Assembly (NCBI GenBank): GCA_965116075.1
Contig: OZ220467.1
Span: forward strand, 684,580-748,579
Reading direction: 5' to 3'
Length of the DNA: 64,000 bases
Source of the DNA: Thermodesulfobacteriota bacterium
GTDB taxonomy: Bacteria > Desulfobacterota_D > UBA1144 > Nemesobacterales > Nemesobacteraceae
The notes beneath the pieces were generated by a model. That model did no database searches, was not told the DNA's origin, and saw nothing but the letters and a program-made list of their open reading frames with translations. The translations under genes were made by a program, and so were the position numbers. This document shows positions 6,258 through 49,400 of this stretch, piece after piece (position 1 is the first letter of the stretch; every line of letters starts with the position of its first letter).

Positions 6258-6267
6258 TAGTGTTGCG

Positions 6268-6936
6268 TCAAGCAATGATTTTGGGGTAGATGGATTTGAG
6301 TCTGCAGCGGGCATCGGCAACCGACATACGCCAATTCACACCACGCTGGCTTGCGTTGACATGTTGCGACCACGCCGCCGCCTCGGCCCGCAACTCGTCC
6401 AGGTCCCCGATCCGTCGACCCTTCAGACACTGCCGCGTCAGACAACTCAACTCACACTCAGCCACGTTCAGCCAACTCGCGTGCTTTGGGGTGTACTGGA
6501 ACTTGATGCGCTGCCTCAACCGCCTCGCCCGCTTCGGCTCAAAAGCCTCGTACAACGCTCCCGGTGTATGCGTGTTAAGGTTGTCCAGCACCAGTGTAAT
6601 TCTCTCGCAGTTTGCATAGCGACTCTCCAGCAGAGCCGACACCTCCTCCGCCCAGTCCAATTTAGTGCGCCGCTCTCGCACCGTCACCGTGCGCCAACCT
6701 GCCAGCGGTTCACAGAACAGGAACACCGAGGCCATGCCAGCCCGTTGATACTCATAGTCCACACGGCGCGGATGCTCCGTGGTTGCAGGCAATGGCTGGC
6801 GGGTTTCCCCCACCATCTGTACCGGCTGTTCGTCCATACAGACCACTGGCCGTCGCTCATCGTAAGGCTCTTCGTAGGTCGACAGAACATCTTCCATGGC
6901 CGCCACATACTCCCCGTCCGCCTTCGGCGGAATCAC
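6268..6936 (-). CDS. IS630-family transposase, DDE catalytic part (orfB)
   Basis: The 222-aa product contains LVLDNLNTHT...KFQYTPKHASWLNVAECELSCL, the DDE_3 (Tc1/IS630) motifs. Confidence 0.8.
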   Translation of the reverse strand: MIPPKADGEYVAAMEDVLSTYEEPYDERRPVVCMDEQPVQMVGETRQPLPATTEHPRRVDYEYQRAGMASVFLFCEPLAGWRTVTVRERRTKLDWAEEVSALLESRYANCERITLVLDNLNTHTPGALYEAFEPKRARRLRQRIKFQYTPKHASWLNVAECELSCLTRQCLKGRRIGDLDELRAEAAAWSQHVNASQRGVNWRMSVADARCRLKSIYPKIIA

Positions 6937-7404
6937 CCAGTACTGCAGATAGCGCCCCGCAATGCCGTTTTTTTTAACGTCTGGTTGACGGTTTCGTGGC
7001 TGATTGATTCACAGATGCCAACCTCAACCGCCTCGCTTGCCAGCAGCCGTAGCGACCATTGGCCGTAGCCGACCGGTGGCGGCCCCAGCCGTAGCGCGAT
7101 CAGCGCGGCTTCCTGCCGCCCGTCCAAGAGCTTCGGTGGCCAAGTGGACGGGTCCCGTTGCCGCCCGTTGAGAGCCAACTCAAAACCTTCCAGCACGCAA
7201 CATTTACGCACGTTCGCAACAGTGCGCTCCTGACAACCATATGCCTCCGCAACCTGGTGGTCGCACCAGTTTGACCCGTCCGCATCAACTTGTAGCAGAA
7301 TACGTGCCCGGCGCGCTTTCTGACTGCTACCCTTGAGCTTCTTGATGACCTCCTGACATGTCTTGCGTTCGGCCTCCGACAGCCGCACAATGTACTTCTT
7401 CATG
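6933..7404 (-). CDS. IS630-family transposase, N-terminal HTH part (orfA); likely fused to orfB by programmed frameshift
   Basis: Begins MKKYIVRLSEAERKTCQEVIKKLKGSSQKARRARILLQVDADGSNWCDHQVAEAYG. An A8 run (plus-strand tttttttt at 6963-6970) sits exactly at the orfA/orfB junction and is a candidate slippery site. Confidence 0.7.
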
Positions 7405-8437: not shown

Positions 8438-9686
8438 CTAGTGTTGCGTCAAGTAATGATTTTTGGATAGATGGACTTGAGTCTGCAGCGGGCATCGGCA
8501 ACCGACATACGCCAGTTCACACCACGCTGGCTTGCGTTGACACGTTGCGACCACGCCGCCACCTCAGCCCGCAACTCGTCCAGGTCCCCGATCCGTCGAC
8601 CCTTCAGACACTGCCGCGTCAGACAACTCAACTCGCACTCAGTCACGTTCAGCCAACTCGCGTGCTTCGGAGTGTACTGGAACTTGATGCGTTGCCTCAG
8701 CCGCCGCGCCCGCTCCGGCTCAAAAGCCTCGTACAACGCTCCCTGCGTGTGCGTGTTGAGGTTGTCCAGCACCAGCGTGACCATCTCGCAGTCTGCATAG
8801 TGACTCTCCAGCAGAGCCGCCACTTCCTCCGCCCAGTCCAACTTGGTGCGCCGCTCTCGCACCGTCACCGTGCGCCAACCTGCCAGCGGTTCATAGAACA
8901 GGAACACCGAGGCCATGCCGGCCCGCTGATACTCGTAGTCCACACGGCGCGGATACTCCATGGTTGCGGGCAATGGCTGGCGGGTTTCCCCCACCATCTG
9001 TACCGGCTGTTCGTCCATGCAAACCACTGGCCGCCGCTCATCATAAGGCTCCTCGTAGGTCGACAGAACATCTTCCATGGCCGCCACATACTCCCCGTCC
9101 GCCTTCGGCGGAATCACCCAGTACTGCAGGTAGCGTCCCGCTATACCGTTTTTTTTAATGTCTTGTTGACGGTTTCATGGCTGATCGATTCACAGATGCC
9201 GACCTCAACCGCCTCGCTTGCCAGCAGACGTAGCGACCATTGGCCGTAGCCAGAGCAGCCGGTGGCGGCCCCAACCGCAACGCGATCAGCGCGGCTTCCT
9301 GCCGCCCGTCCAGAAGCTTCGGCGGCCAGGTGGATGGGTCCCGTTGCCGCCCGTTGAGGGCCAACTCAAAACCTTCCAGCACGCAACATTTACGCACGTT
9401 CGCGACAGTACGCTCCTGACAACCGTAGGCCTCCGCAACCTAGTGGTCGCACCAGTTCGGCCCGTCCGCATCAACTTGTAGCAGAATACGCGCCCGGCGC
9501 GCTTTCTGACTGCTACCCTTGAGTTTATTGATGACCTCCTGACATGTTTTGCGTTCAGCCTCCGACAGGCGCACAATGTACTTCTTCATGGTTCCTCCTC
9601 CTTTGTTGTAGAAAGACGGCTTGGGACACGAAGCCCTCGCCTTGAAACACATTATACAAGAAATGTTGCCTTTGACGCAACACTAG
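8438..9686 (-). mobile_element. IS630-family insertion sequence, copy B (degenerate)
   Basis: Same terminal repeats as copy A and ~93-95% identity. The DDE ORF 8449-9117 is intact, but the N-terminal part is split into 9155-9397 and 9440-9652 by extra indels. Confidence 0.85.
8449..9652 (-). pseudogene. IS630-family transposase of copy B, multiply frameshifted
   Basis: The N-terminal ORF begins ...MKKYIVRLSEAERKTCQEVINKLKG, the middle fragment reads MRKCCVLEGFELALNGRQRD..., and the C-terminal DDE ORF is 222 aa. Confidence 0.75.
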
Positions 9687-10142: not shown

Positions 10143-11243
10143 ATGGAACTCGGATATTTCTCAATACCTCTTCATCCTGCCGGTTCTCCGCTTTTTCTGA
10201 CGCTTGACCAAGACCTAGAGCAGATGGTCTTTCTTGACCAGGTTGGTTTTTCAGAAGTGTGGATAGGGGAGCATTTCACCGCAGGTTGGGAGAATATCGC
10301 GGCCCCCGATCTGTTCATAGCGAAAGCTTCTACTCTTACGGAAAAAATAATATTTGGTACAGGTGTTTCCTGTTTACCTGAGCATGACCCTTTTATGCTT
10401 GCGCATAGAATCGCGGTTCTAGACAATCTGCTCAAGGGAAGGTTCTACTGGGGTGTGGGAGCGGGAAGTTTTATAGGGGATTTTGAGGCATTTGGCATAA
10501 ATCCAAAAACAGGAGAGCAGAGACAACTGATGAATGAAGCGCTTGAGGCGATACTGGACCTCTGGGATAACCCTACTCCGGGTACGTATAGTGGCTCAAA
10601 GTGGAGGTACACGGTTCCTAATCCTGTGGAAGAAGTTGGTCTCGGAGTGCACACAAAACCTTTCCAAAAGCCTCATCCTCCCATAGCTGTCGCGGGGATT
10701 TCTGAAGGTTCTTTGAGTCTGAAAACAGCGGGGGAGCACGGCTGGATGCCGATGAGCATAAATTTTGTGATTCCAGATGTCCTTAAATCTCACTGGGAGA
10801 TGTACGAGCAGGGAGCTTTTGCTGTGGGAAATAGTAATCCTGACAGGAAAAAATGGAGAATCTCAAGGGATATTTACGTGGCGGATACAACAGAGCAAGC
10901 TAGAAGGGATGTTAAGGGAAGCACTTTAGCAAGAGATTTCCGTGATTATTTTTTCAAGATAGTTCCAATGATAAGAAAAAACCTAGACTTGTTCAAAATT
11001 GATAAGTCAATGCCTGATAGTGAAGTTACGATTGACTATATGATTGACAACATGTGGCTTGTCGGAAGTCCAGAAGATGTAGCCGCAAAGATAGTACGGC
11101 TTTACGAATTTGTTGGAGGATTCGGAGTGCTTTTGGTAATGGGACACGAATGGAATCCAAAAGAGAAATGGGAGAAGTCTCTGACTCTTCTTAGAGAACA
11201 AGTCATTCCCATGGTGAAAAAGAATCTACGGGTAAAGGACTAA
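10143..11243 (+). CDS. LLM-class (luciferase-like) flavin-dependent oxidoreductase
   Basis: 366 aa containing GEHFTAGWENIAAPDLFIAKASTLTEKIIFGTGVSCLPEHDPFMLAHRIAVLDNL, typical of bacterial luciferase-like monooxygenases. Confidence 0.85.
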   Translation: MELGYFSIPLHPAGSPLFLTLDQDLEQMVFLDQVGFSEVWIGEHFTAGWENIAAPDLFIAKASTLTEKIIFGTGVSCLPEHDPFMLAHRIAVLDNLLKGRFYWGVGAGSFIGDFEAFGINPKTGEQRQLMNEALEAILDLWDNPTPGTYSGSKWRYTVPNPVEEVGLGVHTKPFQKPHPPIAVAGISEGSLSLKTAGEHGWMPMSINFVIPDVLKSHWEMYEQGAFAVGNSNPDRKKWRISRDIYVADTTEQARRDVKGSTLARDFRDYFFKIVPMIRKNLDLFKIDKSMPDSEVTIDYMIDNMWLVGSPEDVAAKIVRLYEFVGGFGVLLVMGHEWNPKEKWEKSLTLLREQVIPMVKKNLRVKD

Positions 11244-18850: not shown

Positions 18851-19333
18851 CTATGACAACTCAAGCATCTTTTTCAGTCGAATACCACTTTGACTGAGTT
18901 GCCTGGCCTGAGGAGAGTTTTTTGGCATTTTCATGCTACCGCTGGCAATCCAGGTATATCGAATATCTTTATTGGTGCGGGCGGTCATCTTTTTGAGTTG
19001 TTCAGCATCTTTATTCAACCAGTCTTTTAGCCATTGTAATTTTTTGAGAACCGCTGAAACTTCCTTTGTCGTAGCCGGATGAACCTCTACCCAAACTGCC
19101 CATTGGCTCTTATGCTTTGGATGTTTATATCCTATACCATAGTCCCATCGGGGCGAATTAGCGTGGCGAGGCTCAAGTTTAAGAGCCAAGTCGAGATTTA
19201 TACTTCCTGTCAATCGTCGCGGGTTTGCGCATTTTATCAATTTCCCGTGCTTTTTACCTGATGCTTGCTTTTCACTTCGGTATGCGCAGTTCACCGGATG
19301 TGACGTAGACCTCACCGCATCTTTGAAATTCAT
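18851..19333 (-). CDS. 160-aa partner protein of the upstream ATPase (RloB/DUF4276-like?)
   Basis: Its start overlaps the ATPase stop by 4 nt (translational coupling). The product is basic, with no TM helix or signal peptide, and has no strong motif. Confidence 0.55.
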   Translation of the reverse strand: MNFKDAVRSTSHPVNCAYRSEKQASGKKHGKLIKCANPRRLTGSINLDLALKLEPRHANSPRWDYGIGYKHPKHKSQWAVWVEVHPATTKEVSAVLKKLQWLKDWLNKDAEQLKKMTARTNKDIRYTWIASGSMKMPKNSPQARQLSQSGIRLKKMLELS

Positions 19334-20517
19334 AATCCTTTAGATAATCCCTTCCCGGCTACTTCGGCGACAACATCTCCAACTCTTCCGGAAAACTCTG
19401 TCAGACCACCCCACCCCTCTTCGGCAACGTTCTTTGAGCCGGGATCAAGGTTTGATATATCACAAACCTTACCATCGCGTTTAAAGTAGTAAGTCTTAAA
19501 TTTGCTTTTGAGCGAACAGGTTGCGAGATCTTTTGTCTTTTGCGTACTGGGAAGATTAAGAAGTTTGACAATATCTCCAGAACTACCGCCATTTTTTTGC
19601 AAGAATTGGATTGCCCAAACGATATCAAGAACATGAGACGAATGCGTGGAGAGACAAATCCGATAACCTCGTAGTCGCAACTCCAAGATAAGGTTGATCA
19701 CAGCGCCAATACCGTTTGGATGCAAACCCATCTCAGGCTCTTCAATTACTACCCATTCAAGTTTTTCGCGCTTAGCTACCTTTGATGAGGGTAAAAGCCA
19801 GTAGATCCCAAGTAATAACGGTACGAACTCTCGCTGCCCAGCTGACCAAACCAAGTATGGTAGAGCATGTTCAGCATCTGCGCGTGCACGTAACACTAAG
19901 CGGCTTTGGTGGTATCTAGACGTTTGAGTACGAAGACGAAACCCACCGAAGATGTGCTCTTCAATCGGTCCTCGTAGAACCTTATCTAGCCGTTGGGAAC
20001 GCGGAAAAACTTTCTCATTAAAACCAATCTCATTCTGCACTATATAATGGAGTTTATCGCCAAAGTCTCGCAGAACGAATGGGTCGCCCGCTTTGAAGTC
20101 GGAAAACGGATATGGCATACCGTCTCGTAAACTCATGACTCGTTGAGCTGGAATATAAAACATTTTTTCTGAAGGTATAACTCTTGGCGTACGAGAATGA
20201 GTTAAGGTTGATATTTTGACTTCCTTTTGCGAATTGCCCAAAAACAGGCGGCTCTTTTCTTTTGACCAAATTGAGGACATCCCTTCCCCAAGGTACAGAT
20301 CAAAGAAACTATGGAAATTATCATCTTGATCTTTGATCACCAAACCAGACTTGCGCATAGTTTGGTGTATCGCCTGTTTGTCTTCAAGAAGTTTTAGAAG
20401 TTGCAAAAAGATGCTTTTTCCAGTGGCTTGTGGTCCGACAAATATAGTCAGATCACCAAACCTTACGTCCGCTTCCTTGATCGGTCCGATTTCATGCGCT
20501 CTTATCCGTTTAATCAT
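19330..20517 (-). CDS. AAA_21/AAA_15-type ABC-like ATPase (OLD/PtuA/AbiL-like family)
   Basis: Walker A FVGPQATGKS, Walker B-like VVIEEPEMGLHP and H-loop LSTHSSHVLD, 395 aa. This is the architecture of ATPases found in two-gene phage-defence systems. Confidence 0.85.
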   Translation of the reverse strand: MIKRIRAHEIGPIKEADVRFGDLTIFVGPQATGKSIFLQLLKLLEDKQAIHQTMRKSGLVIKDQDDNFHSFFDLYLGEGMSSIWSKEKSRLFLGNSQKEVKISTLTHSRTPRVIPSEKMFYIPAQRVMSLRDGMPYPFSDFKAGDPFVLRDFGDKLHYIVQNEIGFNEKVFPRSQRLDKVLRGPIEEHIFGGFRLRTQTSRYHQSRLVLRARADAEHALPYLVWSAGQREFVPLLLGIYWLLPSSKVAKREKLEWVVIEEPEMGLHPNGIGAVINLILELRLRGYRICLSTHSSHVLDIVWAIQFLQKNGGSSGDIVKLLNLPSTQKTKDLATCSLKSKFKTYYFKRDGKVCDISNLDPGSKNVAEEGWGGLTEFSGRVGDVVAEVAGKGLSKGL

Positions 20518-27627: not shown

Positions 27628-27872
27628 GATTCCCCTTAACTCTTCTCTATCTCTATTGATTGGGCTAAATCTCCTAGATAACGCGACTGGAGATCCTGAG
27701 AAAAACGATTAGACTCAGGCAACAAAAGCGTATTACTGAACTGAACTATAACAAAATAAAGTTTTTGGTCAAAAAAGTAAGGACTTCTTAGCGATTCGGA
27801 GTAGTCTTCATGGAAATCACGAAAAACCCTACCAAACGCACATGCGCGTTCTCAATAGCGTAAACTTCTATT

Positions 27873-27902
27873 TTGACAGAAATCATTAAAGTGTGGTAAA
27901 CT
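27873..27902 (+). promoter_or_regulatory. candidate sigma70 promoter of the giant gene (TTGACA - 18 nt - TGgTAAACT extended -10)
   Basis: ttgaca at 27873-27878 and tg.taaact at 27894-27902. The predicted +1 falls at ~27909, the A of an ATG, which would give a leaderless transcript. Confidence 0.4.
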
Positions 27903-27908
27903 GACAAA

Positions 27909-27983
27909 ATGACTCCTGTTACTCTACCTGCTGCTGCCCCCCCCCCCCCCTTAAAAATTCAGATGCGGGGCCGAAGCGCGTGA
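27909..27983 (+). promoter_or_regulatory. 24-codon uORF (MTPVTLPAAAPPPPLKIQMRGRSA*) containing the poly-C tract; its TGA overlaps the GTG start of the giant gene (GTGA)
   Basis: ATG 27909 is in frame 3 and the stop falls at 27981-27983. Adding one C to the tract would put this ATG in frame with the signal-peptide ORF. Confidence 0.35.
27937..27950 (+). repeat. homopolymeric C14 tract 30 nt upstream of the giant-gene start
   Basis: ctgctg-cccccccccccccc-ttaaaa. It lies exactly at the GC-content boundary. Confidence 0.9.
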
Positions 27984-28453
27984 GAGACCTGCGCGGGACG
28001 CTTCGCTTGGCGGCGCTGGCCGCCGTTCTCCTGTTCGCGCTGAGCGCGGGCCTTGCGCCCCAGGCTGCGCATGCCACGTGGGGGGTCTTGACGGCCACCC
28101 CGGGCGATGGGCAGGTTACGCTGACCTGGACTTGGACGCACTCAAGACCTAACTTCAGCCACTGGTTTTTCAGGTATGTAAGAGCTGGCCAACCTTATCC
28201 CGGGTATGACTGTTTGCCTAGATTTAATATCTGCTCCATTGACGACCCAAAGTACAGACTGACAGGGGCTCATCATCGCACCCAGACGATTACCGGACTC
28301 ACCAATGGGGTCGAGTACGTGTTTGAGGTACGCGCCCATGTTCCTAATACGGTTTTGGAGGTGAGGGCGACCCCGTCGCGCTATCCCATTGCCCCGAAGG
28401 GCGTACGCGACGCCGGGAACCAGCCAGGTCACCTTGTCCTGGGACGCTCATAA
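27980..28453 (+). CDS. giant secreted repeat protein, N-terminal segment (signal peptide plus first FN3-like domain), frame 2; separated from the main frame by a +/-1 frameshift
   Basis: MRDLRGTLRLAALAAVLLFALSAGLAPQAAHA-TWG... has the n-, h- and AHA-cleavage regions of a Sec signal peptide. It is followed by an FN3-like fold (TITGLTNGVEYVFEVRA). The frame ends at TAA 28451, while frame 3 opens at 28365. Confidence 0.7.
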   Translation: MRDLRGTLRLAALAAVLLFALSAGLAPQAAHATWGVLTATPGDGQVTLTWTWTHSRPNFSHWFFRYVRAGQPYPGYDCLPRFNICSIDDPKYRLTGAHHRTQTITGLTNGVEYVFEVRAHVPNTVLEVRATPSRYPIAPKGVRDAGNQPGHLVLGRS

Positions 28454-31400
28454 CGACTCGCGCGTCACGCGCTGGGAGTACGAGCAGACCAGCGGGGGCA
28501 CAACCGGGAACTGGAAGAAGATCTCCGCGAGCAATGCCTCAACCACCAGCCACACGGTGACGGGTCTGACCAACGGCACGCGGTACGGCTTCAGGGTCCG
28601 CGCGGCAAGCGATGGTCTCGGCGCCCCGTCGGCCTCCGTGTTCGCAACGCCACGGCCCGCTCCCTGCGCTTTGAGAATTGCCAGTGTCAGTGGGCCGGGT
28701 CCGACGGTCGCGTTCCGTTGGGGGCCCACCAAGGCAAATTGCGGCGACATCAGCCGGACGCAGGTTCAGAAGAAACTCGCCAGCAGCCCGGACTGGAGCG
28801 GGAGTGTCTGGGAAACCCTGTCCACGAATTACTATCGAAACTCCGGTGTCGCATTTACCGTGGACGACACCTTGCGGGTGAGTCTTGCCGAGGGCAACAG
28901 CTACCATGTGCGCGTCCGCGCGGTCAACGAAGGCCTCACCGTCACGTCCGAGGAAGGCGTCGCCGGCCCGCCGTCCTCGGAAACTCTTCTGTGGCTCGGT
29001 CCTCCAGGGTCTCCAACCGGGCTGAAAGCCGCGCCCTTTCAGGCTGCGATCCAGCTCACCTGGAACCAGCAGGCGTCAGGACAGAAGGTGACCGGGTGGG
29101 ATGTTCGGAGGAAGGAGGGCGCCGGCAGTTACGGCGAATGGGGCCGTATTACGGGTTCCGGCGCGAACACCGTCCTCCATTCGGCGAGCGGGCTGACGTC
29201 CGGGGTCGACTACACGTTTCAGATTCGGGCGGTGAACGCCGCCGGCGACGGTCGGGCTTCCGAAGAAGTGACCGAAACGCCGACCGGCGTGACGATCTCC
29301 CAACCCGCGCTGACGGTAGAAGAAGGTAGCAGCAGCACCTATACGGTGGTGCTTGATGCCGAGCCGTCGGCCGACGTCACGGTGATCGTGGGCGGCGCTG
29401 CGGCCGGCGTGTCGGTGAATCCGCCGTCGCTGGTCTTCTCGCTGCTGAACTGGAACCAGCCGCAGACGGTCACGGTCTCCGCGGCCGAGGACGACAACGC
29501 GGTTTCCGAACCGGTGACACTGACCCACAGCGCCAGCGGCGGAGGCCTGGACTCGGTGCTCATCCGCACGGTCGTGGTGACCGTGACGGAGAACGAAACG
29601 GCCGGATTCGCCCTGTCGGAGTCCGATCTGGAGCTGGAGGAGGGCGAGTCCGGCTCCTGGACGGTGGCGCTGACCTCCGAGCCGACCGCCGATGTGACGG
29701 TCACCATCAGCGGCGCCCCGAGCGGCGTGACGGTGACTCCGCCCACGCTGACGTTCACGGCCGCGGACTGGCAGACGCCGCAGACGGTGATGGTCGCGAC
29801 GGTCGACGATGAAGACGCGGCGCCGTTGCCCGCGGTGACGCTGACCCACAGCGCGTCCGGCGGCGACTACGGCTCGCTCACCGCCTCGGTTGCGTTGACC
29901 GTGACCGAGAACGACACGGCTGGGCTGACGTTCTCGGATGGCGACAAGGAGATCAGCCAGCTGGAGGTCATCGAGGACGGGTCGGGCAACTACATGGTGG
30001 CGCTGACGTCCGAGCCGACCGCCGATGTGACGGTGACCATCACGCCGGGGCCGGGCGACGTGACGGTGCAGTCGGGGTCGCTGACCTTCACTGCCCTCAA
30101 CTGGAGCGCCGCGCAGCAGGTGGTTGTCCTCGCGGCCGATGACGACGACGCGAAGACGGATCCTGCGGTGACACTGACCCACAGCGCGTCCGGCGGCGAT
30201 TACGGCTCGGTGACCGGCGTGCTCACGGTGGCCGTGCTGGAACATGATCCGCCCAGGAAGCCCGTGAACTTCAGCGCGACGGCGGGCGACAGCCAGGTGA
30301 CGCTGTCCTGGAACGATCCGCAGAATCCCGACATCAGCGGCTGGGAGTTCCAGCAGGCCGTGCGCGGCGCCAGCTTCGGCGCGTGGACGCCCATCCCCGA
30401 TTCCGACGCCGCGACCACCAGCCACACGGTCACGGGTCTGACCAACGGCGTCTTCTACAGTTTCAAGCTCCGCGCCGTCGCCCAGCTCCGGGAGTCCCTC
30501 AGGGGGGAGAAGGAAGACGCCGAGGGCGTCAGCTCCGACGAGATCAGCGCGCTGCCGCGCCGGGTGGGCAAGAACGTCACCCTGTTCGTCTCCGACGCAC
30601 AAATTGAAGAAGGACAGGCCGGCACGACACCTGTCTTGATCCGTCTCGTTCTCGGTGAGCCGGCGCCCGCTGGCGGGCTCGGCCTCGCCTTCGAGGTCGA
30701 TGGAACCTCGACGGCAACGGCGAGCGCGCCGGTCGCGACCAGTTGCTCGGCGCCAAACCCGATGGATGCGGACATGTGCTGGCCGCGGGGCGCCCGTGTT
30801 CTTGTGCCCGCAGCCCAGGACGTTGCCGTGCATCAAGTCGCTGTCCGAGGCGACCGGGCGATCGAGCCGAACGAGACCCTCGTGCTGAATGTCGTGCCCG
30901 CCATCGATGGCTGGACCGGGGACTCGGCCACCATCACCATCGTCGACGACGAGGTGGCGCCCGCCGCGCCGACGGGCCTCGCCGCCGGGCCGCGCAACGA
31001 ACAGGCGCTCCTCACCTGGGACGACCCGCAGAATCCCGGCATCACGCGCTGGGAGTTCCAGCAGAAGGAAGGCTCGGGCGGCAGCTACGGCGCCTGGACG
31101 GCCATCCCGGGTTCCGATGCCGCGACCACCAGCCACACGGTGACGGGCCTGACCAACGGCACGGAGTACGGCTTCAAGGTGCGCGCGGTGAGCCCCCGCG
31201 GCAACGGCGCCGAATCGGCCGAGGCGACGGTGACGCCGGGAGCGGTTCCCGCCGCGCCCACTGGCTTCAGGGCGACCCCAGGCGACGCGCAGTTAGAGCT
31301 GTTCTGGGATGCTGCCCCGGACAACTCCGGCATCCTTCGTTGGGAAGTGCGGTTCAGGAAGGGCAGTGAGGACTACCAACAACCGTGGGCGCCGATCCCG

Positions 31401-34400
31401 GGCGGCGCCGCAACAACGAAATTGGGGCCGCTCACCGCTGAAAACGGCATCGTGCGCACCTACCAGTTGCGCGCAGTGAATGCCGCCGGCCCCGGAGAGG
31501 CCGCCGAACTGACCGCGACGCCGCTTCCGCCCTTGCCCCGGAAGCCGGCGGCGCTGAAGGCGACCGCTGGCAACGCGCAGGTGGCTCTCGCCTGGGATCA
31601 TCCCCCTATCGTCCCTGGGAGTGATTTGCGCAAATACGAACTCCAGCGCAAGCAAGGCGCCAGCGTCAGCTACGGCGCCTGGACGCGGGTCGACATCGTT
31701 CGGGAAGATCTGGGATTCCTTCGGTACGAGGCGCGCCATGTGGTCACGGGCCTGACCAACGGTGAGACCTACAGCTTCAGGGTGCGCGAGTTGAATGAGG
31801 CCGGCGCCGGCCCCGCATCGGACGAGGTGACGGTGACGCTGCCGGCCGTCGTGCCCGCTGAACCGACCGGAGTCCGCGCCATCGCCAGCAACCGTCAGGT
31901 GCTGCTGCGCTGGGACGACCCGAACAACCCCGGCATCACCCGCTGGGAATTCCAGGGGAAGGAAGGCCCCAGCGTCAGCTACGGCCCCTGGGCGCCCATC
32001 TCCGGTTCCGACGCTGAGACCACCAGCCACACGGTGACCGGTCTGACGAACGACACCGTCTACGCCTTCAAGGTGCGCGCCGTGAACGCGACCGGCGCCG
32101 GCGCCGCGTCTTCCGAGGTCACGGCGACGCCGATCGCCGTGCCGGCGCCGCCGTCGGGCTTCCGGGCGACGCCGGACCACCGCAGCGTGATCCTGACCTG
32201 GGACGACCCGAAGGACAGCAGCATCACGCGCTGGCAGGTACGGTTCTTGCCGGAGACAGAGGAGTTCCAGGATGCGAACTCGAACTGGCTGGACATCCGC
32301 GGTTCCGGCGCGACCACCACGCGGCACGAAGTGGGCCGCTTGCCGTCCGGCCAGATCCACCGCTTCCAGGTGCGTGCTGTCAGCAATGCCGGCGTCGGGC
32401 CCGCGTCGGACGAGGCGCTCGCCGGCCCGGCGGATCCCGGCGTGACCGTCTCGACCTCCAGCCTGACGGTGGAGGAAGGCGGCAGCGGCGAGTACACGGT
32501 GAAGCTGAACACCTCGCCCCTGGGCCGCCAGGTGGTGATCGCCGTGGCCGGCGCGTCCGGCGAGCTGAGCGCGGCGCCGGCGACCCTCACCTTCACCGGC
32601 GCGAACTGGATGGAAGCGCAGACGGTCACGGTGACCCTGGCCGAGGACGGCGACGCGCAGACCGATGCCGCGCAGACCCTGACCCACAGCGCCCGGGGCG
32701 GCGGCTACGACCATGTGGACATCGCCTCGGTGACGGTGACGCTGGCGGAGAACGACCCGCCCCTGAAACCGGCGAACTTGCGCGCCATCGCGGGCAACGG
32801 CCAGGTCATGCTGTCCTGGGACGACCCGGAGAATCCCGACATCACCGGCTGGGAGTTCGCGCAGAAGACGGGCGACGGTAGCTATGGCGGCTTCACGGCC
32901 ATTTCCGGTTCCGACGCTGAGACCACCAGCCACACGGTGACGGGGCTGACGGACGGCACGCGGTACGGCTTCAAGGTCCGCGCCGTGAGCGCCGTCGGCG
33001 ACGGCGCCGAGTCGGACGAGGCGACCGCGACCGCGGGGCGGCCGAGTCTGAGCGTGGCGGATGTGACCGCGGCCGAGGACGGCACGTTCACCTTCACGGT
33101 GACGCTGGATCCGGCGGCGCCGGCGGACGTGACCTTCAAGTACGCAGTGACCGCGGAGAGCGGCGACACCGCGACGGCGGACACGGACTTCACCGAGGTG
33201 GCGGCGACCGCGGCCACCATCTCGGCGGGCGATACCACCTTCACGTTCACGGTGACGGTGGCCGACGACAAGCTCGACGAGGACGACGAGACCTTCACCG
33301 TGACGCTGTCGGAGCCGTCCGCCAACGCCCAGCTCGGCGACGCCGCGGCGACCGGCACGATTACCGACAACGACGCCTCGCCGGTGCTGGCCGATATCGA
33401 CAACCTCACGCTCAGGCTCGGCCGGACCGTGGACATCACCGCCACGGCGACGGACGCCGACGCCGGCGACACGATCACCTACGCCTGGACGCGCAAGGCC
33501 GGCGAGACCACGCCGCCGCTGCCGAGCAGCCCGGCCCCGGACCTGGACAAGGCCCGGCTCACCTTCACCCCGACCGAGGCCGGCGTCTACACGATGACGG
33601 TGACGGCGAGCGACGGCGACAGCAACGGCAACAAGCACGGCAACACGGACACCGGGGAAGTGGTCATCACCGTGGTCGGCAAGGCCGCGGTGTCCGTGCC
33701 GGCGGCGCTGTCCGTCACCGAGGGCACGGACACGAACGCCACGGTGACGGTGACCACCGAGGAGGCGTTCGGCGAGGACGTGACCTTCGACGTGAGCTAT
33801 GGCGACACCAGCGCCACCGGAGCGACCAATGCGGCAGACGGCGACTACGACAACGACGCCGTGACGTCGGTGACGTTCTCGGGCGCCGACACCACGAAGA
33901 CCATCGCGATCCCGATCAACGACGACGGGCTCGACGAGGACGACGAGACCTTCACGGTCATCATCGCGCTGGCGGAGGGCAGCGCCCTGCCGGCCGGTTT
34001 CGCGGACGGCAACCTCACGACGACGGTGACGATCGTCGACAACGACCACTCGCCGGTGCTGCCCGACTATCCACCCACCGGAACGATCCGGGTGGGCCAG
34101 GAGGTGGATCTCTCGGCCGAGGCGACGGACGAGGACGGGGACACGGTGACGTACACCTGGACGCGCAAGGCCGGCGAGACCACGCCGCCGCTGCCGGACG
34201 GCACGAACCTGAATCAGGCCCAGCTACTCTTCACGCCGACCGAAACCGGCGCCTACACGATGACGGTGACGGCGAGCGACCCGTACGGCAACACCGACAC
34301 CGCGACGGTGGCCCTCACGGTGGTCCGAGCGCACGTGGTCTCGGCGCCGCCGGCGCTGTCGGTGACCGAGGGCACGGACGCGAACGCCACAGTGACGGTG

Positions 34401-37400
34401 ACGACGGAGGCCGTGTTCGGCGAGGACGTGACCTTCAACGTGAGCTACGGCGGCACGAGCGCGACCGGCGCGGCCGATCCGGCGAACGGCGACTACGAGA
34501 ACGACGCCGTGACATCGGTGACGTTCTCAAGCGCCGAGACGACGAAGGACATCGCGGTCCCGATCACCAATGACGACCTCGACGAGGACGACGAGACCTT
34601 CACGGTCACCGTCGCCCTGCCGGAGGGAGCCTCCCTGCCGGTCGGCTTCGCGCCCGGCAACCTCGCGACGACGGTGACCATCGCCGACGACGACCACTCG
34701 CCGGTGCTGGCGGAGATCAAGGACCGGATGGTCACGCCGGGCGATGACATCGACATCACCGCGTCCGCAACCGACGAGGACGGGGACACGGTGACGTACG
34801 CTTGGACGCGCAAGGCGGGCGAAACGCCGGCAATCCCGAACGGCACGGATCTGAACGCCGCGCGCCTGATGTTCACGCCTGAGGTCGGCGCCTACACGAT
34901 GACGGTGACGGCGAGCGACCCGCACGGCAACACGGACACCGAAGAGGTGACGATCACGGTGGCCAGCGTGGAGGCGCCGGTGCTGACCGGGGTCACCTCG
35001 ACGAGCGCCGCCGTGGTCAACCTCGCGTGGACGCACTCCGGTACGGCCCCGGGCGATTTCATCGGCGACCCCGGCGGCGCTCTGCGGATCTACTGGGAAG
35101 CGGAACATCGGCTGAAAGGCGCCGGCGACAGCGACTGGGACGATTACTCGAACGCCAGCCCCAGCGTGGGCGGAGGCAACACCCGGCGCACCATGGCGGT
35201 CACTGTTGTGAGCGATTACCCGCACGGCGCGGCGGTTGAGTGGCGGGTGCGAGCCTCGGTCGGCGGCGGTTCGCATGGTCCCTGGTCGAACGTTCGGGAA
35301 GTTACGTTGCAGAACAGCGAGCTGGCGGCGCTGACGTTCACTGGTGCGCCGGTGACGGTGGCGCCGGGTTCCAGCAAGACCTACACGGTGGCCCTGACCG
35401 AGGCGTTTGCCGGCACGCTCAGCATCACGAGTTCGGACACGGCGACGGCGACGATCAATCCGCCCAGCCTGACGTTCACGGCGCAGAATTACAACATGGC
35501 GCAGGACGTGACGGTGACCGGCGTCAAGGCCGGCAGCGCCACCATCGGCCACGCCTTCCGTCTGACCGGCGCCACGGCGGATGCGATTGCGGACGCTGGT
35601 ACGGTGGCGGTGACGGTGGTCGCCACACCCGCGGCGCCGGCGGGCCTGACGGCGACGGCGGGCGACGCGCAGGTGGAACTGTCGTGGACCGACCCGGGTA
35701 ATGCCGGCATCACCGTCTGGGAATTCCAGCAGAAGGAAGGCTCCGCCGGCAGCTACGGCGCCTGGACGGCGATTTCCAATTCGGACGCCGAGACCACGAG
35801 CCATACGGTGATGGGTCTGACCAACGACACGCTCTATGGCTTCAAGGTGCGGGCGGTGAATGGTGCGGGCGCCGGCACGGCCTCGGCCGAAGTGACGGCG
35901 ACGCCGGAGAAGCCAGTTTCGCTGAGCATTGCGGACGTGACGGCGTTGGAGAACGCGGGGACGATGTCGTTCACGGTGACAGCGGACCCGGCGCCGGCCT
36001 CGCCGATCACGTTCAGTTATAGGGTGACGGCGGAGAGCGGCAACACGGCGACGGCGGGCGTGGACTTCACGGAGGTGGCCACGGCGACCGAGTTGACCAT
36101 TGCGGCGAGCGCGACCACGGCGACGATCGCAGTGACGGTGACGGACGACGACCTCGACGAGGACGACGAGACCTTCACGGTGACGCTGTCGGGGCAGTCC
36201 GCCGGCGTGCTCCTGGGCGACGACAAGGCGACGGAGGCGATCACGGCGATGGGCACGATCACCGACGACGACCACTCTCCGGTATTGAAGGAGATCAAGG
36301 ACCAGAGGATCACGCTGGGCGAGGCCGTAGACATCACGGCGTCCGCCACGGACGAGGACGGGAACACGGTGACGTACGCCTGGACGCGCAAGGCGGGCGA
36401 GACGACGCCGTTGCTGCCGGACGGCACGGTGGAGAACGTGGCTCGCCTGACGTTTACGCCGCCCGATGTCGGTGCCTATACGTACACGGTGACGGCCTCG
36501 GACGGCAACGGCAACACGGACACCGAGGAGGTGACCATCCGGGTGGTGGCGGCCGTGACGGCGCCGGTACTGACCGGCGCCACTTCGTCGAGCGCCGCCG
36601 TGGTCACGCTCACCTGGACGCACTCCGGTACGGCCCCGGGCGATTTCATCGGCGACCCCGGCGGCGCTCCGCAGATCTACTGGGAAGCGGAACATCGGCT
36701 GAAAGGCGCCGGCGACAGCGACTGGGACGATTACTCGAACGCCAGCCCCAGCGTGGGCGGAGGCAACACCCGGCGCACCATGGCGGTCACTGTGGTGAGC
36801 GATTACCCGCACGGCGCGGCGGTTGAGTGGCGGGTGCGAGCCTCGGTCGGCAGTTCGCATGGTCCCTGGTCGAACGTTCGGGAAGTTACGTTGCAGAACA
36901 GCGAGCTGGCGGCGCTGACGCTGACCGGTGCGCCGGTGACGGTGGCGCCGGGTTCCAGCAAGACCTACACGGTGGCCCTGACCGAGGCGTTTGCGGGCAC
37001 GCTCAGCATCACCAGTTCGGACACGGCGACGGCGACGATCAATCCGCCCAGCCTGACGTTCACAGCGCAGAATTACAACATGGCGCAGGACGTGACGGTG
37101 ACCGGCGTCAAGGCCGGCAGCGCCACCATCGGCCACGCCTTCCGTCTGACCGGCGCCGCGGCGGATGCGATTGCGAACGCCGGCGCGGTGGCGGTGACGG
37201 TCGCAGCCGCCACCAAGCCCGCCGAGCCGACCGGTCTGGAGGCGACCCCGGGCGACACCCAGGTGACGTTGTCCTGGGACGACCCGGACGATGATTCCAT
37301 CACCGGGTATCGGGTACAGCGACATGGAGGAAGTCGCTGGGGCAGGTGGACAGACATCGCCAATTCGGACGCCGACACCGTGAGCCACACGGTGACGGGC

Positions 37401-40400
37401 CTGACCAACGGCACCAAGTACCGTTTCCGCATCCGGGCGGTGAACGACGTCGGTAACGGCGCCGAGTCTTCGGTGGTGCGGGCGACGCCGACGTTCGTCG
37501 AGCCTGTCACCCTCACCGCCACGGCCGGACCGCGCGGCGCCGTGACGTTGAACTGGACCGTCAAGAGCAGCAACCCCAATCGGCTGGTCAAGGGTGCCGA
37601 CCGCGTCAGCGGGTGGGAAAGCCGGTACCGGCTGAAAGGAAGACAGGACTGGAACGGATTCGTCCGCCACACAACCACCGGAGGCGATTCGCGGACCGTC
37701 TCGACGAACATGTCGGATCTCATTCCGCATGGCGGGATCGTGGAGATTCAGATCCGGCCGGCCGGTTCCTCCGGCGCCTCGGTCTCGACGCGAACAGGCC
37801 CCTGGTCGAACACGGCGACGGTCACCCTCAACGACGTGGACGACGCCAATACCGCCCTCAAGTTCACCGGTGTTCCGATCACGGTGGCGCCGGGCGAGGA
37901 TGCCACCTACACGGTCCGGCTGACCAAGCCATACGCGGCGGGTACTGTGTCAATCACGAGCGACGCCACGGGCAAGGCGACGGTGGACCCGGCGTCCCTG
38001 ACGTTCACGGCGCAGAATTACAATGTGGCGCAGGACGTGACGGTGAGCGGCGTGGAGGCCGGCACGGCGACCCTCAACCACTCGTTCCGGGTGACCGGCG
38101 CCAGCGCCGATGCGGTTCCCGACGCGGGTACGGTGGCGGTGACGGTCAGCGCGGCCCCCGCCCCCGGCGTGACGCTCTCGTCGACCGAGCTGACGGTGGA
38201 GGAAGGCGCCAGCGGCGAGTACACGGTGAAACTGGACACGGCGCCGTCGGCGAACGTGACGGTGACGGTGGGCGGCGAATCGGGTGAGGTGACGGTGGAC
38301 CCGTCTTCGCTGACGTTCACGCCGTCGAACTTCGGCACGGCGCAGACGGTTACGGTCAACGCCGGGGCTGACGAGGACACGACGGACGACACGGCGACGC
38401 TGACGCATAAGGCTTCCAGTAGCGACATGGGCTACGGCGACTCCCTGGACATCGACGATGTCACGGTCATGGTGACGGACACGACGCCGATATTGCAGCT
38501 ATTGACGGATCCTGCGGCGGTGATGGAGGGCTCGGACATCAGCCTGATGGTGACGTCGGACCGCGCGTTGACGGGCGATCTGACGGTGAGTCTGACGCTT
38601 TCGGGTCGGGGTTTGAGCGGTTTCGACGCGGACGACATCCCGGGTATGCTGGGTCCGCGGCCCTTCACCGCGTCGTTCGGCAACAGCGCCAGCACGACGG
38701 GTACGGTGACGATCCCGACCAGCACGGACTCGGATGCGGAGGGCGCGGAGACCTACACGATCACGCTGAACGACGGGACCGGCTACGCGCTCGGCGCCGA
38801 CAAGACGGCGGACGGCACGCTGAACGACCCGCCGCAGTCCACCGCGCTGAGCATCGCGGACGTGACGGCGGCGGAGGACGGGACGTTTACATTCACGGTG
38901 ACGGCGGCGCCGTCGCCGTCCTCGCAGGTGACGTTCAAGTACACGGTGACGGCGGAGAGCGGCGACACGGCGACGGCGGATACGGACTTCACGGCGGTGG
39001 CGACAGCGACCGCGGCGACCATCGCGGCGAACGCGAGCAGCGCGACGATCACGGTGACGGTAACGGACGACGCCCTCGACGAATCGGACGAGACGTTCAC
39101 GGTGACGCTGTCGGAGCCGTCGTCCGGCGTGACGCTCTCTGACGCCACCGCAACGGGCACGATCCAGGACAACGACCCCTCGCCGGCCCTGTCGATCGCG
39201 GCGCCGGCGGCGGTCGCGGAAGGCGACAGCGGTAGCGCCGATATGATATTCACGGTCACGCTGGACGCGCCCAGCGGTCGTGCGGTGACGGTGGACTACG
39301 CGGTGGATGAGACCTCGACTGCGACGGCGGGGACGGACTTCAGCGGTGGCGCCGGCACGCTAACCTTTGCGGCGGGTGAGACCAGCAAGACGATTACGGT
39401 TGCGGTTGCGGGCGACGAGTTGGACGAGGTGGACGAGACGGTGACGCTTAAGCTTTCGAACGCGACCAACGCCAGCATCGCCACCGCGACGGCGACGGGG
39501 ACAATCACGGACGACGATCCGGCCCCTGGCGTGACGGTTTCCGTCTCCGAACTGACGGTGACGGAAAGCAGCACCGCCAACTACACCGTGGTGCTGAATA
39601 CGCGGCCGGCGGGTGAGGTGACGGTCACGCCGCGCAGCGACGACCCCGGAGCGGCGACGGTGTCCGGTCCGCTGACCTTCACCCGCTTTAATTGGAACAG
39701 GCCCCGGACGGTGACGGTCACGGCGGTGCCGGATGGCGATACCGGCGACGAGAGCGTCACTGTGAGTCATGCCGTGACCGGCTACGGTAGTGTGAGCGCG
39801 GCCCCGTCCGTATCGGTGACGGTGACGGACACGACGCCGACGCTACAGTTATCGACGGATCCGGCGGCGGTGACCGAGGGTGAGGCGATCAATCTGACAG
39901 TGACATCGGACAAGGCGCTGGCGGGTGGTCTGGCGGTGAGTCTGACGCTGGAGGACCGTGACACGAGCGGTTTCAAGGCGGAGGACATCCAGGGATCCTT
40001 GGGTCCGCGCGACTTCATCGCATCCTTCGGCGCCACCGCCAGCACAACAGGGACGGTGACGATCCCGACCAGCACGGACTACCTTGAGGAGGGCCAGGAG
40101 ACCTACCGAATCACGCTGAACGAGGGCGCCGGCTACGCGGTAGACGAGGACAACAACACGGCCGACGGCGCGCTGAACGATGGCACGCCGGCCCTGGGCG
40201 CCGGTGCGATTGCGCTGTTCATTTCGGACACGGAGGCGGCGGAGGGCGAGAAGATGTTGTTCACGGTGTCGGTGGCGCCGGCGTCGTCCTTGCCGATCAC
40301 GTTCAAGTACACGGTGACGGCAGAGAGCGGCGACACCGCGACCGCCGGCTCGGACTTCACGGCGGTGACGATGCCGATGGAGGCGACGATTGCGGCGAGC

Positions 40401-46400: not shown

Positions 46401-49400
46401 ACATACCGGATCACGCTTAGCGATGCCGACGGCTATGCGGTTGGCGACGATGTGACGGCTGACGGCACGTTGAACGACGGCGCGGCGACGCCCTGCAAGG
46501 TGTCGGTGACGAACTACCGCGCGATTGACGACAGTGGTTTTCTGCCGGTTTACTCGATTTCGTTCGGTTTGCGGATACCGGCGAACTGTGGTCCGATCAC
46601 GGGGATGCAGCGTCAGATCAAGACCTTGAGTCAGGGCTGGGGCGATGTGGAGTGGGTGGACCTGGAGAATGCGGGTCTGCGTACGTTTGCTAACAGCGCC
46701 ACTGCCAGGACGCCTTCCGGAATCGAGCTGGTCTTCCTGAATTCCGGCAGCGGCAAGCATCAGGTTCGGGTGCGCGCGCAGAACGGCGCGCGAGTCGGTC
46801 CGGCATCCGACGAGGTGTCGGTGACGTTCGAAGTCCCGCCCACACCGAGCGGGCTGAGCGCGACCCCTGGCGCTGCCTCGGTGACGCTGACCTGGAATGC
46901 GCAGTCCGGGGAGCAGATCACGTCGTGGAACGTCCAGTACAAGCGGGGTTCCGAGTCGTACCGGAACCTGCACGTGGCGGATGCCGGGGACGGCAGCACG
47001 ACGACGGCTACGGTGACGGGTCTGTCGGCAGAGGAGTACACGTTCCGTTTGCAGGCTAGGAACGAGAACGGTCTGAGCGCGGCCTCGTCGACGGTGACGG
47101 CGACGCCGACAGCAGCGACCGTGGTTCCGCCCGCTCCGACGGGCGTGAGGGCGACGGGGGGTGACGGCGAGGTGACGCTGTCGTGGACCGACCCGCAGAA
47201 CGATACGATCACGAAGTGGCAGTACCGGCAGAAGACGGGTAGCGGCGCTTACGGTGAGTGGACGGACCTTGAGCACAGCCGGACACGTAGCGCGTTTCCG
47301 ACGCTGACGGGTACGGTTGGTGATCTGACGAACGGGAGTTCGTATACGTTCGAGCTTCGCGCGGTGAACGGTGTCGGCGCTGGCGCGGCTTCTTCTGAGG
47401 TTACGGTGACGCTGGGCGCGGATGCGGATGCGGTATCGCTGAGCGTTGCGGACCTGACGGCGGCGGAGGGCGGTACGTTCGCGTTCACGGTGACGGCGAC
47501 GCCTGCGCCGGCCTCGGAGATCAGCTTCAAGTACACGGTGACGGCGGAGACCGGCGATACGGCGACTGCCGATACGGATTTCACAGAGGTTGATACGGCG
47601 ACCGAGGTGACGATTGCGGCGAACGCGACCACGGCGACGATAACGGTGTCGGTGACGGATGACGATCTTGATGAGGACAATGAGACGTTTACGGTGACGT
47701 TGTCAGAGCAGACCTCCGGGGTGACGCTCTCTGACGCCACTGCGACAGGGACGATAACGGATGATGATAATTCCCCGGTATTGGAAGATATAGAGGATTT
47801 AACGATAAGGCTGGGGCAGTCGGTGGATATAACTGCGGTGGCGACGGATGCGGACGACGATGACATCGGCTATGTCTGGACGCGTAAGTCCGGGGAGACG
47901 TCCCCTGCGATACCTGGTAGCGCGGATCTGGAAGTGGCTCGGTTGATGTTCAAGTCTACCTCGGTGGGTACGTACACGATGACGGTGACCGCATCTGACG
48001 GCAATGGGAACAGCGATACGGAGGAAGTGGAGATCACGGTGGTACGGGCGCGCGTGGTCTCGGTGCCGGCGACGCTGTCGGTGGCGGAGGATGATGGCGA
48101 TGCGGTGGTGACGGTGACGACGGAGGGCGCGTTTGGTGAGAATGTGACGTTTAACGTGACGTACGGTGGTACGAGCGCGACGGGGCACAACGACCCTGCC
48201 AGCGGCGACTATGACAATGATGCGGTGACGGCGATAACGTTTGGAGCGGGCGACCTGACAAAAGACATTGAGGTGCCGATAACGGATGATAATCTTGAAG
48301 AGGCTGATGAGACGTTCACGGTGACGATTGCCCCTGCGACCGCCACGCTGCCTGATGGTTTCGCAATGGGAGATGCCACGACGACGGTGACGATAGAGGA
48401 CAATGATACGCAAGCGCCGTGTAAGGTGGAGGTGGTGGATGTATCAACGACGGCGGATGCCAGTCCGTTCCCCGGCGGTCAATCAATTTACTCAATATCG
48501 TTTAAGGTGAGGATACCTGCGGATTGCGGCGCTATAACCAATATGCAGAGGCGTATAAAGACGAACGGGCAGTGGGGTGAATGGACGGATAATGAGGTGT
48601 TGCGCAGTTTTGCTGACAGCGCTACGGCAAGGACGCCTGCGGAGATGGAGTTGATACTCGTAGCGGATGGTAGCGCGAGGGAGGTGCAGGTTCGGGCGTT
48701 AAACGGTAGTAAGACAGGTCCTGAGTCAGAAGCTGTTGGCGTCACGTTTACCGCGCCGGGCAAGCCGGGTGGTTTGAGCGCTACAGGCGGGGCTGGTTCC
48801 GCAGCGTTGAGTTGGGATGGGCAGACGGGAGAGCAGATCACGGCATGGGTGGTGGAGTACAAGCGTGGTTCAGAGAGTTATAAGAGTAAGGTGATAGTGG
48901 ATGCTGGAGATGGTAGCGCTACAGCGACGACTATCACGGGTTTAGCGTCTGAGGAATACACTTTTCGTATAAAGGCGCGTAATCCAAACGGAGACAGTCC
49001 TTATTCAGATGAGACGACAGCTACGCCAGAGGCGGTGACCGCTGCTCCTGCGGCGCCGACGGGAGTGACGGGCAGTCCGGGGGACGGGGAAGTGAGGTTG
49101 GAGTGGGCAGACCCAGAAGATGCGAACATAACGAAGTGGCAATATGAGCAGAAGGCCGGTAGCGGCGCTTATGATGGGGCTTGGACGGACATCACGGTAT
49201 CAAAGAGCGGATCTCTTTCCAGGTTAACGGGTACGGTCACGGGTTTGACAAATGGCGTCAGTTATACGTTTAAGGCGCGCGCGGTGAATAGCGCGCTAAA
49301 TAGCGCTGTCGCCGGCTCGGGCAACGGCGCGGAATCGGATGAGGTGACGGTAGTGCCGATAGCGGCGCCGACGGGATTAACGGTGACGCCTGCGGGCAGT

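Follow-up and report, generated by a model that had tools for sequence, protein, structure and literature searches.

The 64,000-nucleotide stretch of contig OZ220467.1 analyzed here (hereafter the window) contains an uninterrupted run of 14 cytosines (C14) just upstream of a giant gene for a putative secreted protein, and this tract makes a credible, if unproven, candidate for an expression switch of a familiar type. We give a probability of roughly 0.45 to the interpretation that C14 is a genuine hypermutable tract of the contingency type in the 5' control region of the giant gene, with a translational route being the most likely one here. Slipped-strand mispairing would alter the length of the tract and, through it, the amount of giant protein made. 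An earlier note on the same DNA had also proposed a slipped-strand switch; its central idea was strengthened, in that the repeat is real and non-random and poly-C recurs in four of the five orthologous loci, while the mechanism that it described was not supported in its details. The elements of the 5' region, all on the plus strand, are the following.

27873–27902, plus strand: sigma70-like promoter match, TTGACA-18 nt-TG-n-TAAACT (promoter scan, 10/12 plus extended TG)
27909–27983, plus strand: 24-codon upstream open reading frame (uORF) MTPVTLPAAAPPPPLKIQMRGRSA with the tract inside; its TGA overlaps GTG 27980 as GTGA (27980–27983)
27937–27950, plus strand: uninterrupted C14 homopolymer, the proposed hypermutable element (sequence, run scan and shuffles)
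27951–27963, plus strand: AT-rich 13-mer directly 3' of the tract, holding TAA 27952–27954 and the −10-like hexamer AAAAAT 27953–27958
27980–28453, plus strand: 157-codon open reading frame (ORF) with a GTG start, encoding the signal peptide VRDLRGTLRLAALAAVLLFALSAGLAPQAAHA and the first FN3 domain (fn3, E = 5e-4)
28365–64000, plus strand: giant ORF with FN3/Calx-beta/PKD/He_PIG arrays, open to the window end, at least 11,878 codons
28400–28412, plus strand: 2-bp deletion, GGCGTACGCGACG in the window and GGCGTCACCGCGACG in six other copies (comparison of copies)

The C14 run has a single match on either strand of the window and appears in none of 100 dinucleotide-preserving shuffles. It is the sole G/C run of at least 7 and the sole run of any base of at least 9 in the 64 kb. 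The tract begins 35 nt past the −10 box and lies 29 nt 5' of GTG 27980. The product has the marks of a surface or secreted protein, namely a canonical Sec-type signal peptide (VRDLRGTLRLAALAAVLLFALSAGLAPQAAHA) followed by arrays of FN3, Calx-beta, PKD, and He_PIG domains, and by analogy such an adhesin-type array with a signal peptide would place the gene in the usual class of phase-variable genes.

Promoter, uORF, and frame outcomes

The promoter match consists of a −35 hexamer (TTGACA) at 27873 and a −10 hexamer (TAAACT) at 27902, separated by an 18-nt spacer, the −10 hexamer being preceded by TG, and an independent scan recovered it as the earlier note had read it. The ATG at 27909 lies 7 nt past the −10 hexamer, a geometry that suggests a transcription start at about A27909 and a leaderless uORF. 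The tract is thus placed between the predicted promoter and the start codon of the signal-peptide ORF, within a putative uORF whose frame it would set. The GTG at 27980 has no good Shine-Dalgarno sequence, and the stop/start overlap expected of a translationally coupled uORF is found at GTGA 27980–27983. Because of the upstream promoter, the GTG without a good Shine-Dalgarno sequence, and the stop/start overlap, coupling governed by the uORF frame is the most economical model.

The products were recomputed for tract lengths of C11 to C18. With C11, C14, and C17 the uORF is short and ends at GTGA; with C12, C15, and C18 the ATG at 27909 is fused in frame with the signal-peptide ORF; and with C13 and C16 the frame stops at TAA 27952–27954 directly past the tract, 28 nt 5' of the GTG. 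The positions of the tract in the uORF and of the TGA overlapping the GTG, the in-frame fusion at 15 Cs, and the early termination at 13 Cs had all been noted earlier and agree with these results, except that the C15 peptide spelled in the earlier note contains one proline too many.

The following sequence of events is proposed. A host-type promoter at 27873–27902 would give a transcript starting at or near ATG 27909, and ribosomes would translate the uORF across the tract in a frame set by the tract length. At lengths of 3n+2 (C14 as assembled), the uORF would end at GTGA and the ribosomes would be handed to GTG 27980, so that the native signal peptide is made. At lengths of 3n (C12 and C15), a fusion of the uORF to the signal peptide would add 24 residues, and at lengths of 3n+1 (C13 and C16), the stop at TAA 28 nt before the GTG would abolish coupling. 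In addition, the tract codes for at least four successive prolines in whatever frame it is read, and this proline run may stall ribosomes and add to the effect. We infer the transcription start, the uORF translation, the coupling, and the effect on expression from the sequence.

Poly-C tracts in related loci

When one genome was scanned per species, five loci (L001–L005) were found, all in chromosome-level metagenome-assembled genomes (MAGs), in which the N-terminal 413 residues of the giant protein are 93–94% identical to those of the window. They span Binatota, Acidobacteriota, and, with three Gammaproteobacteria, Pseudomonadota, and the tracts were located by a homopolymer scan.

L001, Candidatus Binatia: C21 at 9657–9677, coding strand
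L002, Pseudohongiella: C14 at 9597–9610, coding strand
L003, Pseudomonadales
L004, Thermoanaerobaculia: C16 at 9606–9621, coding strand
L005, Gammaproteobacteria: C18 at 9659–9676, coding strand

In L001, L002, L004, and L005, a pure poly-C run 5' of the giant gene is the only run of at least 9 in each 21 kb. Over the six copies, whose gene bodies are 94–99% identical, the consensus tract lengths are 14, 14, 16, 18, 21, and absent. Contingency loci are recognized by a pure G/C run of at least ~8 that differs in length among copies, and such a run is found here (C14 in the window, C14 to C21 elsewhere) together with the length differences. As a control, 79 unrelated loci with FN3 genes (754 kb, 33 of the loci with >60% GC) contained no G/C run of at least 10; most of these loci come from short-read assemblies, in which long runs may be under-represented. 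Weak peptide patterns were used in the metagenome scan behind this control, whose hits were all distant FN3 proteins (L006–L084, at most 48% identity) and served only for the homopolymer comparison. Six related Dadabacteria housekeeping loci (136 kb) contained no G/C run of at least 7.

The DNA around the tracts has diverged much more than the gene: from tract to gene L001 and L005 are 71% identical, and L004 matches L001 at 75% over 113 nt. The tracts have remained uninterrupted although their flanks have diverged by ~30%, and their lengths vary among copies. A pure tract of varied length amid such flank divergence is the strongest support for the slippage switch, and poly-C in four of five orthologous loci despite 5' flanks that are ~70% identical or unalignable strengthens the general idea. 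This is the expected signature of a maintained, length-variable repeat of the contingency type in the 5' control region of the gene, as far as sequence comparison can tell.

The 5' regions of L001–L005 (9600–9968) are mosaics with abrupt switches from 100% identity to none. L001, L002, and L003 are the same from 9867 and L002 and L003 from 9660, the latter two having an alternative version of the 5' region in common, and the gene bodies differ by only 1–3%. The contrast between mosaic 5' regions and near-uniform gene bodies indicates that recombination has occurred repeatedly and broken off at the gene's 5' end. L001 and L002 have in common a 27-nt block located 12–25 nt 5' of the tract (GGCTGTTCGGCC..AGG.TTCT.GAAC; 0 of 200 shuffles reach its score, p < 0.005), and they are also alike just 3' of the tract. 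Since these two loci share sequence around the tract, it lies within an old mosaic 5' region, and the 27 nt that L001 and L002 have in common 5' of it led us to reject the tract as the precise point where the transferred DNA begins.

The mosaic structure bears on the alternative that the tract is a passive hypermutable passenger, that is, a scar or hotspot at a recombination boundary with no regulatory role, located before what would be a recent pseudogene in the window. The homology between L001 and L005 starts at the tract, all copies lie at different chromosomal sites with mosaic 5' ends, L003 has the gene without the tract, and the copy in the window is frameshifted. However, a neutral tract of C14 to C21 would be expected to shrink or to be interrupted, and all five tracts are pure despite ~30% flank divergence; moreover, L001 and L002 are alike on both sides of the tract, which is therefore not the junction itself, and the downstream ORF in the window is intact for 11,878 codons with a ratio of nonsynonymous to synonymous substitution rates (dN/dS) of ~0.44–0.62, near the values of the other copies. 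This alternative appears improbable.

Two shorter similarities were also observed around the tracts, both with uncorrected p-values, and as marginal matches they are not relied on: an 11-mer, CATGCGCGTTC, common to the 5' regions of the window and L001 (p = 0.005), and TTCAGATGCGG, at window positions 27957–27968 just 3' of the tract, compared with L004 (p = 0.017).

Observations that weigh against a uORF-coupled switch

Several observations weigh against the translational switch proposed above, some of them on the side of the tract and its leader. L003 has the giant gene, and the homopolymer scan of that locus found no tract. No Shine-Dalgarno sequence precedes the uORF ATG at 27909, so uORF translation would depend on the predicted leaderless transcript, and the leader RNA folds no better than shuffled sequences (z = −0.08). 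The tract lengths given here are assembly consensus values rather than counts from individual reads, and a consensus length from a long-read metagenome assembly is not trustworthy to ±1 base; differences of one C being untrustworthy, ON and OFF states are unreadable from the contigs. In assembly by metaMDBG, reads are homopolymer-compressed and the leftover contig errors occur mostly in homopolymers (PMC11392814). The contig names from the same sample are in metaMDBG style, and the window and the related assemblies, if made by metaMDBG, would by analogy carry that homopolymer error.

Other observations come from the start codons of the related genes, where L001, L004, and L005 have in common an in-frame ATG within G(G/C)TGAGCCGATGACCGC, 77, 208, and 99 nt 3' of the tract, respectively. 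Its context has stops in both other frames at the following positions.

L001, 9748–9758: conserved start context TGAGCCGATGA
L004, 9823–9833: conserved start context TGAGCCGATGA
L005, 9769–9779: conserved start context TGAGCCGATGA

Each alternative frame holds a TGA, the first of them 7 nt 5' of the ATG and the second sharing bases with it (ATGA), and by analogy the stops around TGAGCCGATGA would echo the GTGA overlap in the window. The conserved ATG is 71, 46, and 64 codons from the signal-peptide core in L001, L004, and L005, so that the indels between ATG and core are multiples of three. In contrast, the differences among the tract-to-ATG distances are not multiples of three, and this frame-independent spacing indicates that the tract is not part of the main ORF in these three loci, where it likely lies 5' of the start codon. 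In L001 and L004, every frame from the tract ends at or reads into the conserved ATG, and a simple OFF frame is thus not conserved.

A further difficulty is the structure of the gene in the window itself. In the assembly, the signal-peptide ORF is not the giant gene: it stops at 28453 and has only 157 codons, and the giant ORF lies in a different frame. The 2-bp deletion responsible for the split is ~420 nt 3' of the GTG start, and when the 2 bp are put back, one stop-free ORF of 12,007 codons runs from GTG 27980 to the window end. Because of this frameshift, no tract length gives the giant protein as assembled. The deletion is either a very recent inactivation or a consensus or polishing error. 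No other lesion was found over 35 kb of the giant gene and its dN/dS (0.44–0.62) is near that of the other copies, which is consistent with recent inactivation; several near-identical copies per sample might also confuse polishing and perhaps explain the deletion. The switch in the window genome may accordingly be defunct through the deletion, unless the deletion is a consensus error.

The same observations bear on the exact model of the earlier note, in which C14 is OFF and C15 is ON because the leaderless ATG must fuse in frame with the signal-peptide ORF. The fusions at C12, C15, and C18 and a promoter geometry suited to a leaderless ATG agree with it, and L002, L004, and L005 have an ATG 5' of the tract in frame with the giant ORF. 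However, the fused product at C15 stops after only 181 amino acids in the assembly, and the fusion would put 24 residues, including a proline run, before a canonical signal peptide already equipped with a GTG start. Of the six loci, four have an upstream ATG in frame, against a chance expectation of 1/3 (binomial p ~0.1 by our own estimate), and in three orthologous loci the conserved ATG lies 3' of the tract, with spacings whose differences are not multiples of three. Nor is C14 OFF and C15 ON the sole reading of the frames, as the GTGA arrangement at C14 is a classic coupling layout that could be ON with the native signal peptide. The model in this exact form seems quite improbable.

Host context and origin of the giant gene

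The first 28 kb of the window are ordinary chromosomal DNA of 43% GC with polA, ksgA, and genes for a D-Ala-D-Ala carboxypeptidase, a methyltransferase, and a phosphoribosyltransferase. The PolA protein is 67–69% identical to proteins named "MAG: Candidatus Dadabacteria," a class filed under Thermodesulfobacteriota in the NCBI taxonomy. Exact protein look-ups with three ORFs of the window and with the 100%-identical PolA cluster (P0050) gave no match. On a related Dadabacteria contig (L087), PolA is 82% identical and the synteny of polA, methyltransferase, and phosphoribosyltransferase genes is kept up to window position 27618, with the giant gene absent at the syntenic position. The intergenic region native to the host is marked by a second promoter.

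27745–27772, minus strand: divergent sigma70-like promoter TTGACC-16-TATAGT, facing the phosphoribosyltransferase gene (promoter scan)

An imperfect 21-nt inverted repeat with 76% complementarity is formed by the −35 regions of this promoter and of the one 5' of the uORF (27757–27777 and 27868–27888). Within ~15 nt of the tract, GC content rises from 43% to 63–71%, and the giant ORF has 55–71%. Judging from its GC of 68% in a 43% GC genome and from near-identical copies in other phyla, the giant gene is foreign to the host.

The homology of the window gene to L001–L005 begins at 28004–28011, inside the 157-codon ORF, and the DNA is 94–97% identical over 7–9.5 kb (window 28004–37444; L001–L005 from ~9913), an identity that probably reaches past window position 37444. 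The genes of L001–L005 are 97–99% identical to one another at the DNA level, and over 2,100 codons the synonymous divergence (dS) is 0.02–0.05 with dN/dS of 0.4–0.6. To the left of the gene, L001–L005 share nothing beyond a few hundred bases; the flanking genes are differing housekeeping genes (cysS in L002, a kinase gene in L003, and an outer membrane protein gene in L005), and each copy of the giant gene occupies a different chromosomal site. The combination of near-identity, different sites, and unrelated flanks is strong evidence that a gene of >36 kb was exchanged very recently among four phyla. The conserved 5' 44-mer had no match in a scan of viral contigs. The mix of taxa fits published sponge holobiont assemblies, such as that of Petrosia ficiformis (PMC12648040), and suggests a sponge holobiont as the source of these genomes.

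Two further relatives were found. A protein search recovered a close fragment, a seventh variant (L085, P0001), that begins inside the gene and is without a 5' end. The same ENA assembly contains L086, a 51%-identical, heavily frameshifted copy on a cyanobacterial contig. This copy has a G12 tract at 10986–10997 within the coding sequence, exactly at which the reading frame changes, together with a nonsense codon and many further frame breaks.

The abrupt rise in GC and the existence of many similar copies raise the question of whether assembly or polishing created the tract or its junction, for instance by joining a 43% GC genome to a GC-rich gene in a chimera. The leap from 43% to >63% GC falls within ~15 nt of the tract, and at least seven near-identical gene copies in the same kind of sample invite misassignment of reads during polishing. 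On the other hand, poly-C is found within a few hundred nt 5' of the gene in four independently placed copies whose host flanks differ (cysS and the outer membrane protein gene), the window carries an allele of its own, 3–6% different from all others, and its host DNA contains no further G/C run able to seed a false join. That the tract marks a chimeric join is unlikely, and an artefact of this kind in general is highly unlikely.

The giant gene contains internal repeats: a 1569-bp (523-codon) unit occurs three to four times in tandem at 48400–53110, with 95–97% identity, and a 414-bp unit is present in 2.1 copies at 54669–55537. The GC content of the gene falls to 55–60% past 48 kb, with a strong positive GC skew of up to 0.38, and the history of the 3' part may differ from that of the recently exchanged 5' part. 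In the host portion of the window, an ORF with a BRO-N domain (4657–5508), a tandem duplication with ~2.18-kb spacing (6257–7372 and 8438–9558; 93–95% identity, ORFs without a Pfam match, 52–56% GC), and an AAA_15/AAA_21 ATPase ORF (19330–20517) may represent mobile or defence-related DNA.

Comparison with known phase-variable systems and a possible promoter role

A close parallel to the tract on the transcriptional side is the C-stretch in the fim2, fim3, and fimX promoters of Bordetella, which ranges from C7 to C22, varies in length by strain and species, and alters expression (PMC1891110). As in the fim genes, a long pure poly-C of varying length lies 5' of a surface-structure gene and near a −10-like element. 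Unlike the fim system, which acts on transcription through a BvgA-dependent promoter, the window has a good promoter match only 5' of the tract, and the tract is in a putative uORF 29 nt before the start; in addition, the window gene has >12,000 codons, came by horizontal transfer, and is carried by an uncultured bacterium.

A fim-type switch acting on transcription would place the tract directly 5' of a weak −10 element (AAAAAT at 27953–27958 in the window), with tract length setting the spacing to recognition sites or activator sites farther 5' and tuning promoter strength instead of the reading frame. A −10-like hexamer (A at positions 2 and 4, T at 6) is located 1–5 nt 3' of the tract in all five tract-bearing loci (GATATT, GAGATT, GAAAAT, GAAACT, and AAAAAT), in an AT-rich island within GC-rich loci, and three of the five pass the −10 scan threshold. 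The implied 5' untranslated regions are of normal length, with ~65–195 nt to the conserved ATG in L001, L004, and L005 and 15 nt to GTG 27980 in the window. Furthermore, the shared DNA begins only ~30–60 nt 5' of the tract, the expected place of a promoter; GTTC(G/A) repeats are enriched 5' of the tract in L001 and L004; and the fim C-stretches are of similar length. Against this, the three hexamers that pass the scan have no −35-like box at 15–19 nt, a far better promoter sits 5' of the tract in the window, the GTTC(G/A) motif was picked out post hoc and shows enrichment at no more than two of the five loci, and a single activator serving four phyla is implausible. We therefore consider a fim-type switch somewhat unlikely, and the uORF-coupled translational switch is preferred.

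The GTTC(G/A) motifs number five in L001 (9507–9640) and four in L004 (9516–9605), with a background of ~0.5 per 150 nt, and may be regulator sites or rearrangement traces. A 12-mer, GTTCAGATTCGG, is also common to the upstream regions of L001 and L004.

Among the Neisseria genes, pilC and lgt have poly-G/C tracts in the 5' coding region. The same location is described for hmbR and hpuAB (PMC3786947). The window resembles this group (pilC, hmbR, hpuA, and lgt) in that a surface-protein gene has a homopolymer near its signal-peptide end and that the products differ among three frame classes. In the pilC type, however, the tract is inside the main ORF, whereas the window tract is 5' of the start that gives a canonical signal peptide. 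An in-ORF switch was rejected on this geometry, as the tract is 29 nt 5' of the start in the window and 77, 208, and 99 nt 5' of the starts in L001, L004, and L005.

The porA, opc, and fetA genes of Neisseria have homopolymers in their promoter spacers. A similar arrangement is seen on the Dadabacteria contig L087, where G9 tracts at 311–319 (TTGACA-catgta-G9-TAGAAT) and 10277–10285 (TTGACT-taaata-G9-TAGAAT) fill the spacers of sigma70-like promoters ~50–65 nt 5' of two paralogous RTX/collagen-repeat genes. These look like classic promoter-spacer switches, so homopolymer switches on secreted-protein genes appear native to the Dadabacteria lineage. The C14 tract has in common with them a G/C homopolymer beside a secreted- or surface-protein gene, but in those systems the tract fills the −35/−10 spacer (TTGACA-6 nt-G9-TAGAAT in L087), whereas C14 begins 35 nt past the −10 box. 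A promoter-spacer switch was rejected because the window promoter has an ordinary 18-nt spacer with the tract outside it and the three hexamers that the scan detected after the tracts have no −35 box.

In Moraxella catarrhalis, a poly-G tract in the 5' untranslated region of the large adhesin gene uspA1 modulates expression by its length, with an effect reported at the mRNA level. The window is similar in that the homopolymer lies 3' of a predicted transcription start and 5' of the start codon in a large adhesin-type gene; we know of no description of a uORF or a stop/start overlap for uspA1. The fhaB gene of Bordetella pertussis has ~3,600 codons. It is a very large secreted adhesin gene with a G/C tract in its coding region (PMC1891110). 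The window gene differs from fhaB in being more than three times longer and in having its tract 5' of the gene. A full-text literature search found no paper joining "giant gene" with phase-variation terms, and fhaB was the nearest large-adhesin precedent.

Two RNA-level roles were also considered for the leader. A structured RNA element was rejected, as no Rfam family was found in window positions 1–30000 and the fold is at the level of shuffled sequences. Rho loading (a rut site) at the C-run was set aside by reasoning, as 14 nt seems short and the sequence after the tract is G-rich.

Implications for sponge symbionts

Phase variation by repeat slippage is textbook knowledge for a few cultured pathogens and, to our knowledge, is almost unexplored in uncultured symbionts. 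The type of slippage switch discussed here is already known; the putative uORF-coupling mechanism and the retention of the tract over phyla would be the new parts. Apart from any switch, the near-identity of a >36-kb gene over four phyla is strong evidence of very recent exchange within a holobiont. It is conceivable, although unlikely in our view, that the poly-C is a portable, host-independent translational switch that works under any recipient promoter, with coupling to the main start set by the frame of a short uORF that codes for prolines, and that travels with the giant gene across phyla in one sponge microbiome; if true, distantly related symbionts would share stochastic control of a host-interaction protein of >12,000 residues. 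If the tract works, the switch would have been kept while the gene passed between phyla, and sponge symbionts of several phyla could stochastically vary a giant protein with eukaryote-like domains that presumably contacts the host.

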